A DNA stretch of 64,000 nt from a virus. Lineage: Duplodnaviria > Caudoviricetes. Where the stretch lies: positions 4,542-68,541 of IMG/VR virus record IMGVR_UViG_2671180616_000002. One strand, 5' to 3'. Shown here in pieces: positions 36,000 through 38,619 of this stretch. The position numbers and the translations under genes are program-made. Position 1 is the first letter of the stretch, and the number at the start of each line of letters is the position of its first letter. Below the pieces are notes generated by a model. The model had not been told where the DNA came from and ran no database searches. It saw only the letters and a list, made by a program, of their open reading frames with translations.

Positions 36000-36015
36000 A
36001 GGCCGGTGGGCCAAC

Positions 36016-36058
36016 TTTGCAAGATCACGTTATTTGCTGTGCAGAACTATAAGACAGA
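36016..36058 (-). repeat. Right copy of the 43-bp inverted repeat
   Basis: TTTGCAAGATCACGTTATTTGCTGTGCAGAACTATAAGACAGA is the reverse complement of 22633-22675 with one mismatch. Confidence 0.95.
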
Positions 36059-36420
36059 CCCAGGGAACCGGACGGGCGTGCGATGACACGAAAAACCCAT
36101 GACCAGACCAGGAATCAACACGATGGCCGCAACAGAGGACACGTGGCGCCTCGAACCGGTAGGCTGCGCCTGACGCCAGACGACCACTCAGCTACACGGC
36201 CCGACGGTGCACCCCAGACACAGGTCCGGCCCCGCTGTAACTCCCAGGTGCGTCAACACCAGGGAAGCGGGGCCGGGTCGACACTCAACCCTTACGAAGG
36301 TGCCGACATGGCGAAGCGTACCCGGGGGACTCCCCCGTCAGACAGTGGGACCCGCAAGTCCGGCGTGAACATCACACCGCTGGCAAGTTCGGGCCCTGTC
36401 ACCACTACACGTCCCACACG

Positions 36421-36801
36421 ATGAGCAGCCAGGCCGGCGAGGACATCCTCAGCTGGCTGGACACCGCCATCACGAAGGCGGAAGCCGACGCCGACCGCTG
36501 GCACGACGCGGAGTGCTCGTCCCACGGCACCACCATCCTTGATCTCACCGTGCTTCAGGACGGTGCCACGCTGTGCGACTGCGAGGGCCCCTCCGCAGTG
36601 CGACGTCGCTGCGTCGCCGACCGGAAGCTGATCGCGGCCCATCCGATCACCCGCGACGTGATCGCCGTGCATCCCGATGGCACCCACGGCTTCGGCTGCT
36701 CCGTGTGCCACAACGAGGACCTGCTGACAACCGGCGACGGCTGGTGCGACAGCCTGCGCGCCCTGGCCGAGGGCTACGGCTGGACGGAGGGCGAGCGATG
36801 A
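36421..36801 (+). CDS. DUF6221-like protein
   Basis: ILSWLDTAITKAE...VRRRCVADRKLIAAH...CSVC...WCDSLRALAEGYG. Confidence 0.55.
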   Translation: MSSQAGEDILSWLDTAITKAEADADRWHDAECSSHGTTILDLTVLQDGATLCDCEGPSAVRRRCVADRKLIAAHPITRDVIAVHPDGTHGFGCSVCHNEDLLTTGDGWCDSLRALAEGYGWTEGER

Positions 36802-37092
36802 GCGCCCCCACCGAAGCGGCGCCGTGGTACGGACGCAGCACTGCGAACGGCCAAACTCTGGTAGTGGCTGGCTCCCCGACGCACTGGCACCAGGCCGACA
36901 TGTCCATTCCCGGCGGCTGGCCGATGGTCAACGACGGACGGGGCTGGCAGGACGATCGTGATGCTCGCCGGATCCCGTACTCGCCGCATCCGGACATCCC
37001 CTGGATTTCTCACACCCACAAGGGTGCTGAGCAGACCTCACCCAGTAAGGGAGATCAGGTGACTTAGCGACTTCCTGAGCGGGAGGTCCTGG

Positions 37093-37284
37093 GCCCCTTG
37101 GCGGGGGCGCTTCCTCTACCGCTGGCCGCTGGTGTTGGCGCACCGTGCGCGGCCACTTCCTACGGCTCGGTTTGGCGACCGAGCTAAGGCCCGTCTTCTG
37201 GATCCCGGTTTGGCGACCGAGGCCCGTCAGGACGAGCGACTTACAGGTTCTCCACGAACCCAGCACCGCCGAGGCGGGGCTTTT
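37093..37284 (+). promoter_or_regulatory. Structured rep leader: four TTGGCG-loop hairpins plus a terminator-like hairpin
   Basis: Loops at 37098, 37135, 37172 and 37210, each closed by a stem; AGCACCGCC-GA-GGCGGGGCT-TTT at 37262-37284. Confidence 0.75.
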
Positions 37285-37317
37285 GCCTTGCAGCACACAA
37301 ACGAAGGCAGGTACATA

Positions 37318-38619
37318 GTGCAGCACGCGCGCACCTCTTGTCAGCTTCAGCACGTCCACACGCCCGATTCATGCGGGAATTTCCCCTCCACGGGTGGCAT
37401 CCCGTGCCAGATTCAGCCCGTCCGTGGCACTGCCCAGGACCTCGAGAACACCGCCTCCCGGCGCACCGGACCCCGCAAGTGGCTTCGCTCCGTGGAGTGG
37501 CTCATCAACGCCGGCGTCCACCCGAAGGCCAACTCGACGACGCTCGCTGTCGCCCAGGACCTCGCCACGCGCATGGACTACGACACCGGGCATGCTCGCT
37601 ACTGCCTCGAGGACACCGCCGCCCGGCTCGGCGTCGACCGGTCCACCGTCAAGCGGCACGTCGCCGTTCTGCGCGAGATGGGCTCCCTCGCCTGGGTCGT
37701 CCATGGCACCCGCAGGAACATCCGGGCAGTCCTCGGCATGAAGGGGTATGCCGCCACGGCGACCGTGTACGCCGCGGTCATCCCGGCCGTCTACGACCAC
37801 GCCATGGGCCACCGCATCGTCGGCACCGGGTACACGGCCAGGGTCGTCATCGACCAGCGTGACCAGCAGAATCCTGTGGATAACCCGCCTGTGGACAACC
37901 CTGCTAGTGGATCTTGTGCGCCCCCTTCCCTGTCTTTGGTAAACGAAGAGGGGAAGATTCAGATGGGGGGTGGTTTTAACTACACCCCGCGCGAGCGCGC
38001 GAGCCGCACAACCGCCGCATCCCCCTCCCTCCCCTCCACGAACAAAGACGGCAGCAGCAAGGACGGTGCCCCTCGCCGTAGCCCGCTTCAGGTAGCCCAG
38101 GACATTCGCATCGCCCGCCGCGTCCGCGCCCTGGTGACCTGGACCCAGAAGGAGGGACTGCGCCGCCTCGCCTACGTCCTGCGGCCGCTCATCGACCGCG
38201 GCCTGGACGGCGACGCCATCGCCTCCGAGCTGGACGGCATGTGCCTGGGCTGGACACCGAAGAAGCCGGCCGCGTACATCCGTACCGCCCTGGCCCTCGA
38301 GGCCGCCCGCCTCGCCGAGCAGGCCGCCGACCAGGAACGCCGGGACAGCGCAGCCTGGCGCCACCAGAACCCCGAGGACGTCGCGTCCCTCCAGCGCCTC
38401 TTCGGCCTCCCCGAGCAGCAGGAAGAGGAGCCCGTGCGCACCGACTACGACCGGCGCATGGCCCGCCTCAACTGGAACAACTGGATCGAAGTCATCAACC
38501 ACTACGAAGAAGACCCCGACGACGCCCTCGACCTGTACGGAACCCGCTTGATCGCATTCGCCATCGGCAAGGACTGCCAGGCCAAGGACCGCCAGGCCCG
38601 TCAGGAGGCATGGGTATGA
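37318..38619 (+). CDS. Replication initiator (winged-HTH Rep); start uncertain
   Basis: LEDTAARLGVDRSTVKRHVAVLREMGSL HTH, internal DnaA boxes, followed by DciA-like and parAB genes. Confidence 0.7.
   Translation: MQHARTSCQLQHVHTPDSCGNFPSTGGIPCQIQPVRGTAQDLENTASRRTGPRKWLRSVEWLINAGVHPKANSTTLAVAQDLATRMDYDTGHARYCLEDTAARLGVDRSTVKRHVAVLREMGSLAWVVHGTRRNIRAVLGMKGYAATATVYAAVIPAVYDHAMGHRIVGTGYTARVVIDQRDQQNPVDNPPVDNPASGSCAPPSLSLVNEEGKIQMGGGFNYTPRERASRTTAASPSLPSTNKDGSSKDGAPRRSPLQVAQDIRIARRVRALVTWTQKEGLRRLAYVLRPLIDRGLDGDAIASELDGMCLGWTPKKPAAYIRTALALEAARLAEQAADQERRDSAAWRHQNPEDVASLQRLFGLPEQQEEEPVRTDYDRRMARLNWNNWIEVINHYEEDPDDALDLYGTRLIAFAIGKDCQAKDRQARQEAWV
37875..37898 (-). promoter_or_regulatory. Two tandem DnaA boxes inside rep (putative origin)
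   Basis: TGTGGATAA (reverse complement TTATCCACA) at 37875-37883 and TGTGGACAA (TTGTCCACA) at 37890-37898; a relatively AT-rich tract follows. Confidence 0.75.

Follow-up and report, generated by a model that had tools for sequence, protein, structure and literature searches.

The DNA considered here, referred to below as the window, is a stretch of 64,000 nucleotides (nt) from the virus record IMGVR_UViG_2671180616_000002 and represents a pZL12-like Streptomyces phage-plasmid; its segment 36500–38700 matches Streptomyces phage ZL12 and 40 Streptomyces plasmid records. Directly upstream of a replication gene (rep) lies an array of four hairpins with the loop TTGGCG, which an earlier note had described and which inspection of the sequence bears out, the loops starting at 37098, 37135, 37172 and 37210 and the word positions giving the spacing of 37, 37 and 38 nt that had been reported. 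The gene 3′ of the array is, as had been supposed, Rep-like, with a winged helix-turn-helix (wHTH) and a GTG start at 37318. Comparison with homologous copies identifies the four hairpins as the core of a portable non-coding cassette of approximately 365 bp (about 37047–37410) placed before rep, and points to their common loop word as a specificity determinant. The locus carries the following features, given with the evidence that defines them.

37047–37067, plus strand: Shine–Dalgarno (SD)-like AAGGGAG, then a minimal open reading frame (ORF), GTG-ACT-TAG, at 37059–37067 (sequence)
37079–37122, plus strand: helix P0, GCGGGAGG (37079–37086) with CCTC-TA-CCGC (37113–37122), around hairpin 1 (RNAalifold)
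37093–37108, plus strand: hairpin 1, GCCCC, loop TTGGCG, GGGGC (sequence, homologues)
37124–37154, plus strand: hairpin 2, outer stem GGCCGC/GCGGCC, inner stem TGGTG/CACCG, loop TTGGCG at 37135–37140; its core GGTG-TTGGCG-CACC occupies 37131–37144 (sequence, homologues)
37165–37184, plus strand: hairpin 3, GCTCGGT, loop TTGGCG, ACCGAGC (sequence, homologues)
37189–37237, plus strand: hairpin 4, long helix GC-CGTCTT with AGGACG-GC, enclosing an inner hairpin CGGT, loop TTGGCG, ACCG at 37206–37219 (fold, homologues)
37246–37260, plus strand: hairpin 5, GGTTC, variable loop of 4–6 nt, GAACC (alignment fold, covariation table)
37274–37291, plus strand: hairpin 6, GCGGGGC, loop TTTT, GCCTTGC, overlapping a terminator proposed earlier at 37262–37284 (homologues)
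37303–37320, plus strand: rep ribosome-binding region GAAGGCAGG (37303–37311) and start codon GTG (37318–37320) (sequence)
37315–37344, minus strand: candidate promoter, −35 CTGACA (37344–37339), 18-nt spacer, −10 CACTAT (37320–37315) (conservation)
37338–37410, no strand assigned: right conserved flank, TTGTCAGCTT, a small hairpin and an A/T-rich word, within the first approximately 30 rep codons (homologues)
37318–38619, plus strand: rep-like gene, 433 amino acids, winged-HTH, family A (translation, Pfam)

The four-hairpin array is far beyond chance. Three TTGGCG words at gaps of 28–34 nt occur twice in the window (the two occurrences overlap and both lie in the array) compared with 0.00 in 100 shuffles, and of the 18 plus-strand TTGGCG words, the four that are looped by at least four Watson–Crick pairs are all in the array, while a stem of that kind around a 6-nt loop is found at 0.56% of window positions. 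No hairpin elsewhere in the 64 kb has TTGGCG or CGCCAA as its loop, which fits a self-contained sense/antisense pair. The loop of hairpin 5 is TCCAC in the window and so differs from the repeated word, with CTGGCG in a few homologues (L002, L106). An Rfam scan of 36000–38500 on both strands with E up to 10 gave five matches with E of at least 1.1, far below gathering scores and none on the array. Two ORFs, 36928–37359 on the minus strand and the upstream part of 37132–38619 on the plus strand, cross the array; a coding reading was rejected, the homologues showing many indels of 1–2 nt and of 18 nt. A further hairpin (hairpin 0, ACTTCC with GGAGGT) was likewise set aside in favor of P0, its 5′ arm not being kept in the alignment. 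The periodic ACTTCC motif runs out of phase with the loops (the next loop is 28, 24, 18, and 16 nt away) and in part coincides with P0 (its 3′ strand) and with the outer stem of hairpin 4 (its 5′ strand).

The cassette has been found in many Streptomyces replicons. A 301-bp query (37030–37330) matched 53 plasmid records, all from Streptomyces, 29 of these matches covering 80% or more of the query; a pattern scan returned 120 genome-contig loci with 47 true elements, the other 73 being random pattern matches that were left out; and 26 loci come from IMG/VR, 21 of which have the rep-start tail. The carriers are mostly pZL12-like phage-plasmids of approximately 85–100 kb together with some larger plasmids, and the carrier replicons range from 59 kb to 429 kb, the largest being linear. 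Two alignments were used, A1 with 27 copies in 335 columns and A2 with 68 copies in 449 columns, the latter drawn from plasmid and phage collections and the 47 genome-contig elements; counts out of 68 below refer to A2. Rows were removed for a false positive (L132) and for duplicates L030, L060, L068, and L147 (same records as L007, L023, L006, and L010), and L148 (identical to L006), L149 (identical to L061), L073 (without the rep-start tail), and L114 (cut at the locus end) also stand outside A2. The stem-arm tables and the loop-class table do not include pZL12. The array DNA is better conserved than the flanking DNA, TGTCA in the right flank is invariant in the 68-sequence alignment, and the DNA homology extends approximately 90 nt beyond the rep start codon, past which the Rep bodies belong to different families. 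L149, a 372-kb linear plasmid, and L061, a 537-kb contig from a species of another name, have identical cassette regions.

The stems were analyzed with a covariation test on 48 hand-specified pairs in 68 sequences, with 500 shuffles and slid-partner controls. Paired cells amounted to 93.4% compared with 90.5% in the shuffles, 17 pairs were changed on both sides against 7.2 ± 1.8, and 63 cells were double-changed against 15.7 ± 3.0, none of the 500 shuffles reaching any of these values, while the slid-partner controls were paired in 35–47%. The figures are conservative because MAFFT misaligns inner pairs in hairpins 3 and 4; the loop-anchored arm tables are partly circular, each hairpin being taken from the fold of its own sequence. 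The earlier observation that the stems differ yet stay paired is thereby confirmed across 68 homologous copies, and the six hairpins with covarying stems can be regarded as a selected structure, on whichever strand it forms. Helix P0 is beyond the reach of covariation, since it has zero double changes, its cells being paired in 98.9% across the 68 copies and both its strands nearly invariant.

The individual hairpins vary in different ways. Hairpin 1 has compensatory variants such as CGCTCCC/GGGAGCG in UGCC-class elements, and hairpin 2 shows a double change of one inner pair from GC to AU in six of 68 copies and is approximately 18 nt longer in UGCC-class elements with its pairing intact. Hairpin 3 is the most variable stem, occurring as GCTCGAAG/CTTCGAGC, GCTCGGAT/ATCCGAGC, and GACTCAGC/GCCGAGTC, with double changes at four of seven pairs, and persists where the loop word has been lost. 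In hairpin 4, the outer pair changes from CG to AU in 15 of 68 copies, and each of the four inner pairs has double changes. A conserved word, CCACCGAAGCGGG (CACCGCCGAGGCGGGG in the window, 37262–37275), lies between hairpins 5 and 6; any mini-hairpin that it forms, with a loop of the GNA type, would be weak.

The four hairpins share the hexaloop pattern U-UGNC-G, and the loop class differs between elements, UUGGCG, UUGACG, and UUGCCG being found along with a flipped CGCCAA in the three loops of pZL12. Among 68 elements, all four loops are alike as UGGC in 33, UGAC in five, and UGCC-type in four, and three of the four loops are alike in 14, two, and two further elements, respectively. Since UGAC is rare (29 of 272 loops overall), four UGAC loops together are not independent draws, and parsimony on a tree inferred without the loop columns requires three changes to account for the UGAC class. 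Between L023 and L061, 49 of 383 columns differ, four of them in the loops, and all four are G versus A at loop position 4. Co-resident elements also differ in each of the four strains examined, one element having GGC loops and the other GAC loops:

NBC_00873: L006 versus L010 (L010 with GAC in three of four loops)
NBC_00842: L148 versus L011
NBC_01240: L013 versus L009
NBC_01369: L149 versus L150

Such a pattern is unlikely to arise by chance because GAC elements make up only about one tenth of the total, and it is what an incompatibility determinant predicts. Four loops that switch together, do so independently of Rep, and differ within a strain mark the loop word, on comparative grounds, as a specificity determinant.

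The independence from Rep can be seen in the genes that follow the cassette. The Rep protein of the window is a homologue of pZL12.20c with weak matches to HTH_5 (E 0.0016) and HTH_11, both below the Pfam cut-off, and zero matches in NCBIfam; 3′ of rep come an ORF with a DciA domain and then ParA and ParB. At least three divergent wHTH families stand behind the cassette, namely, family A (the window and pZL12), family B (pCQ3, pCQ4, and pSLE1), and a third type (L022 and L025, linear plasmids of 144 kb and 210 kb), with 24 of the 68 copies assigned to A, 32 to B, and 12 unassigned. A rep-like gene lies 3′ of the cassette in every element with a readable flank (56 of 68 in A or B, two more in the third wHTH family), and of the 68 copies, 58 start rep with GTG and 10 with TTG. 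The UGGC, UGAC, and UGCC classes are each found with both Rep A and Rep B, and flipped CGCCAA loops occur with family A (pZL12) and partly with family B (L078). The HTH string SERTVEYHLGMLREAGLL is common to L009 and L010, which are UGAC elements, and L015, which is UGGC, and the conserved N-terminal approximately 30 residues of Rep are independent of loop class; this comparison of protein with loop class covered Rep only. The loop class being independent of both Rep family and HTH argues against iterons bound by Rep. Cassette and rep have recombined repeatedly, as in L108, whose cassette groups with L009–L011 (family B) but whose Rep belongs to family A. In L007 and L016, two of the 27 copies of A1, the reading frame of the conserved first codons, approximately 30 in number, does not continue into the Rep body; either a C-run was misassembled, or the true start lies farther 3′.

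DnaA-box matches number just two in the whole window, TTATCCACA and TTGTCCACA, both on the minus strand at 37875–37898 and 15 bp apart. They fall within rep, at a place coding for PVDNPPVDNP, and most family A Reps of the relatives have repeats of the VDN type. The origin may thus be placed inside rep. GC skew tracks gene orientation and does not switch near 37 kb.

On the minus strand, the folded sequence gives mirror hairpins with CGCCAA loops, and a conserved pair of hexamers at the rep start could give the predicted RNA that carries them. The spacer between the hexamers is exactly 18 nt in 68 of 68 copies, the −35 is CTGACA in 64, ATGACA in two, and GTGACA in two, and the −10 is CACTAT in 58 and CAAGAT in 10, so that only the two middle bases of CAnnAT vary. 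The −10 bases also encode the rep start (GTG 58, TTG 10). TGT and CTT, which make up the −35 region, are rare codons in high-GC Streptomyces. An A/T-rich word at 37370–37385, within the first rep codons and 3′ of a small covarying hairpin, reads GGGAATTTCC in the window and GGCAAAAGTC or GGCTTATCTCC elsewhere and could serve as an operator or as an upstream portion of the candidate promoter on the minus strand.

The minimal ORF at the left end of the cassette begins in the 68 copies with GTG (approximately 47), TTG (approximately 10, two of these rows looking mis-registered), or ATG (approximately 11) and never with CTG, which is the common Leu codon of Streptomyces. Its second codon is ACN in 64 and its stop TAG or TAA in 66 of 68. 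In the window, its TAG is also the stop of an upstream ORF (36573–37067), and the minimal ORF persists where that upstream gene differs or is absent. RNAalifold pairs 37059–37065 with 37309–37316 in a helix that is 96.6% paired, shows zero covariation, and equals the shuffles. Coupling of a ribosome terminating at the minimal ORF to rep initiation, by analogy with ColIb-P9, is no more than a suggestion, since this long-range helix shows no covariation.

A stretch farther upstream, 36040–36420, is called as an ORF of 113 amino acids (36083–36424) and looks non-coding because its third codon positions, judged by eye, are not G+C-rich. It contains a long hairpin, CCCCGC...GCGGGG, whose tip GGTG-CGTCAA-CACC (36247–36260), read as the reverse complement, matches hairpin 2 of the UGAC class exactly and whose loop could pair with UUGGCG through one G-U. 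As a partner of the array, it was rejected, and it is treated as a coincidence or a local feature because no counterpart was found in the relatives checked (L001, L002, and the first 50 kb of pZL12).

The reading that we favor, tentatively and at somewhat under an even chance, is that the cassette is a rep-leader element for copy control and incompatibility that acts by loop–loop recognition with a countertranscript. UUGGCG is the loop of the Inc-RNA target of ColIb-P9, according to the title of reference 37 in PMC4705826, and the compatibility of IncK1 and IncK2 is set by a single loop nucleotide according to PMC10724649. The plus strand would be the leader RNA of rep, and the countertranscript would start near 37308, approximately 7 nt past the −10, and run leftwards through hairpins 6 to 1, with loops reading CGCCAA and a segment complementary to the rep ribosome-binding site. 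The loops would kiss rapidly and multivalently, a duplex would then form, and less Rep would be made as the copy number rises. With four like loops, every antisense loop could meet every target loop, and an element could escape the countertranscript of a co-resident relative only by changing all four, which would explain the concerted switches and make the loop word an incompatibility label. More speculatively, the minimal ORF at 37059–37067 might place a ribosome that is terminating at the 5′ border of the fold, and the possible helix 37059–37065/37309–37316 might couple it to rep translation. A fuller version, in which a portable, protein-independent cassette for copy control and incompatibility sets four identical kissing loops against four U-turn loops, has its compatibility label rewritten in four places at once, gates rep by a start/one-codon/stop unit through the long-range helix, and recombines before unrelated rep genes, is a rather doubtful proposition. 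The arguments for RNA–RNA recognition are indirect: the ColIb-P9 precedent, a label without need of a covarying protein, loops confined to a self-contained array, and the promoter-like pair of hexamers. As regards the RNA system setting the Rep level that the earlier note had envisaged, the part that stands is that the loops behave as specificity determinants of replication control, while its terminator and CGCCGA pairing do not.

Several observations weigh against countertranscript control. The three origins of the UGAC class are weakly supported, strongly supported (starred) branches forcing only one, and the four co-resident pairs amount to at most approximately three independent cases because the pairs of NBC_00873 and NBC_00842, strains that come from one place, are near-copies, L148 being equal to L006; the co-residence count also leaves out same-strain pairs of NBC_01238 and NBC_01525 in the match list. 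The whole region folds no better than shuffles (z 0.18 for the plus strand, −0.41 for the minus strand), and there is no strand bias in folding energy among 27 homologues (mean difference −1.2 ± 5.4 kcal/mol; plus strand lower in 17 of 27, Wilcoxon p 0.23), so nothing here favors RNA over single-stranded or extruded DNA. Wobble pairs are present on both strands in the arm tables, which, together with the lack of a better-folding strand, is as expected if both RNAs must fold. A consensus scan of 36800–37700 on both strands called 0 promoter-like sites, the minus-strand pair included, and no terminator was identified for the supposed countertranscript. No RNA run was among the public runs matched, the nine rows being DNA or metagenome with at most 0.09 of the words each, and the text of the pSLE1 paper is without transcription start sites or RNA-seq. 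Furthermore, a cis-encoded antisense pair is complementary whatever the loop becomes, so that concerted change needs the cross-talk argument, and a loop-binding protein explains it equally well. An antisense loop CGUCAA could also pair with UUGGCG through G-U, and the GGC/GAC split would then give only one-way or partial insulation.

A loop-binding protein is a serious rival, although an unlikely one. A plasmid or host protein would read the UUGNCG hairpins in the rep leader RNA or in extruded or unwound DNA, the four sites would serve for titration or for cooperative binding, and each loop class would correspond to a variant of the protein. Like loops on unlike stems that switch together are what a common ligand predicts, the loop difference between co-resident elements fits equally well, the lack of strand bias and of any RNA run among the public-run matches agrees with it, and the flipped loops of pZL12 would be the bound hairpin moved to the other strand. 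Rep, however, the obvious candidate, is independent of loop class in its family, its HTH string, and its N-terminal approximately 30 residues, and since the cassette moves among three Rep families and replicons of 59 kb to 429 kb, any partner would need to move with it or belong to the host, whereas a host protein would not predict unlike loop classes in one cell. It is improbable that the array is double-stranded origin DNA with iteron-like sites for the wHTH Rep, its palindromes being incidental or serving fold-back, even though it lies directly 5′ of rep in a rep-DciA-ParA-ParB module, shows no strand bias, and has a parallel in pWTY27, whose RepA binds direct and inverted repeats upstream of rep according to PMC3583192. 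The earlier note had set Rep-bound duplex iterons against its own proposal, and they fare poorly: the units share only 6 nt, the covarying stems select for pairing rather than for a protein-read sequence, and the array serves at least three Rep families with a loop class independent of Rep family and HTH. The period of 37–38 bp, approximately 3.5 helical turns, would also put successive units on alternating faces, the two DnaA-box matches inside rep offer another plausible home for the origin, and the skew has no switch at 37 kb.

The transcription attenuator that had been proposed, in which UUGGCG loops pair with an antisense RNA or with the CGCCGA of a terminator at 37262–37284, a ColIb-P9-like pseudoknot setting the read-through into rep, is very improbable. 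CGCCGA (37267–37272) and the T-run (37281–37284) are literally present, the six possible pairs between CGCCGA and UUGGCG (one of them G-U) have the T-run on their 3′ side, and rep starts with GTG or TTG, as in ColIb-P9 according to PMC4705826. The consensus scan of 36800–37700 nevertheless gave 0 terminator-like sites, which speaks against termination at about 37284, and the covarying hairpin that the homologues have at this place (37274–37291 in the window) holds the T-run inside its loop; by a crude per-sequence fold, the T-run falls in the loop in 35 of the 68 copies, in the tail in only nine, and in neither in 24. The activating pairing fails in a similar manner, as CGCCGA is not kept in the homologues and does not change with loop class: most have CCACCGAAGCGGG in its place, which is mismatched to the loop, and UGAC-class elements are without a matching CGTC word at the site. 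No CGCC lies next to the SD at 37303–37311, this same CGCCGA being the nearest candidate. A trans-acting master RNA or decoy, pairing with CGCCA-type words at many gene starts, has hardly any probability. TTGGCG and its complement do occur 63 times in the window compared with 42.75 ± 6.93 in shuffles, above every shuffle, with CGCCAA on the plus strand in 45 cases and TTGGCG in 18; the excess probably reflects codon and strand composition because no link to gene starts was found. With crude calls of 66 genes, CGCCA lies at −40 to +6 of the start in nine compared with 8.4 ± 2.8 for random windows, CGCCAA near starts numbers 2 against 1.8 and CCGCCA 5 against 3.0, and none of the 45 plus-strand CGCCAA words is in a hairpin loop with at least four pairs.

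If countertranscript control by the loops is correct, the compatibility of many Streptomyces phage-plasmids and plasmids would be readable from four six-letter loops (GGC, GAC, GCC, or flipped), and, as far as the literature searched goes, no earlier description would exist of a Streptomyces replicon whose copy number is set by a countertranscript. That literature, which does not include the pZL12 replication paper, contains no account of the cassette or of any such control in Streptomyces plasmids. In multivalent form, the UUGGCG kissing loop of enterobacteria would have arisen again in a high-GC Gram-positive host, providing a natural experiment on why identical repeated loops force concerted evolution, and the approximately 365-bp cassette with its loop classes would be usable for mutually compatible Streptomyces vectors. 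Even with a protein as the ligand, the comparative result holds, namely, a modular specificity element separate from Rep.

Among known systems, the antisense-controlled replicons offer the closest parallels. In ColE1, three hairpin loops kiss their complements on the opposing transcript, and loop changes make new compatibility types. The antisense to the rep leader sets the copy number in R1 CopA/CopT (tap), pT181, pIP501, pMV158, and the countertranscribed RNA of Corynebacterium pGA1/pCG1; YUNR U-turn loops speed pairing, and R1 has translational coupling through a leader peptide. RNA I and RNA II of ColE1 are outlined in PMC7157519, and pMV158 is treated in PMC4485353. The cassette resembles ColE1 in having several hairpin loops, for which kissing is proposed here; ColE1 has no Rep protein, its RNA II is a primer, and its three loops are mutually different, whereas the cassette has four identical loops followed by a rep gene. 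The systems of the R1, pT181, pIP501, pMV158, and pGA1 type have, unlike the cassette, one or two loops, small plasmids, and other Rep families. The Streptomyces theta plasmid pWTY27, an iteron replicon, also has repeats and inverted repeats directly 5′ of rep (PMC3583192), but the units of the cassette share a 6-nt loop only, on covarying stems, and are independent of Rep family; the array lacks the direct repeats of approximately 17–22 bp co-evolving with Rep by which iterons are recognized. The nearest likeness is to the ColIb-P9 Inc RNA/repZ leader (IncI-alpha) and to RNAI/stem-loop I of the I-complex (IncB and IncK), which (PMC4705826, PMC10724649) share with the cassette a UUGGCG hairpin loop in the rep leader, a weak start codon of rep (GUG or UUG), a short ORF upstream whose stop lies in the leader, and a loop sequence that is the incompatibility determinant, a role that the comparisons above suggest for the cassette. 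The I-complex has one loop, while the cassette has four copies on different stems (three in pZL12), resides in a high-GC actinobacterium on a phage-plasmid of approximately 90 kb, and precedes a wHTH Rep without family match that is unrelated to RepZ/RepA. Its CGCC pseudoknot partner by the rep SD is not conserved, its upstream ORF consists of a start, one codon, and a stop approximately 250 nt from rep, and its countertranscript is a prediction. By analogy, the cassette would work most like the I-complex Inc RNA/rep leader and like the multi-loop kissing of ColE1. It belongs to neither family, for it lacks the pseudoknot partner, precedes an unrelated initiator, has its loop in four copies, and resides in a new host and replicon type.

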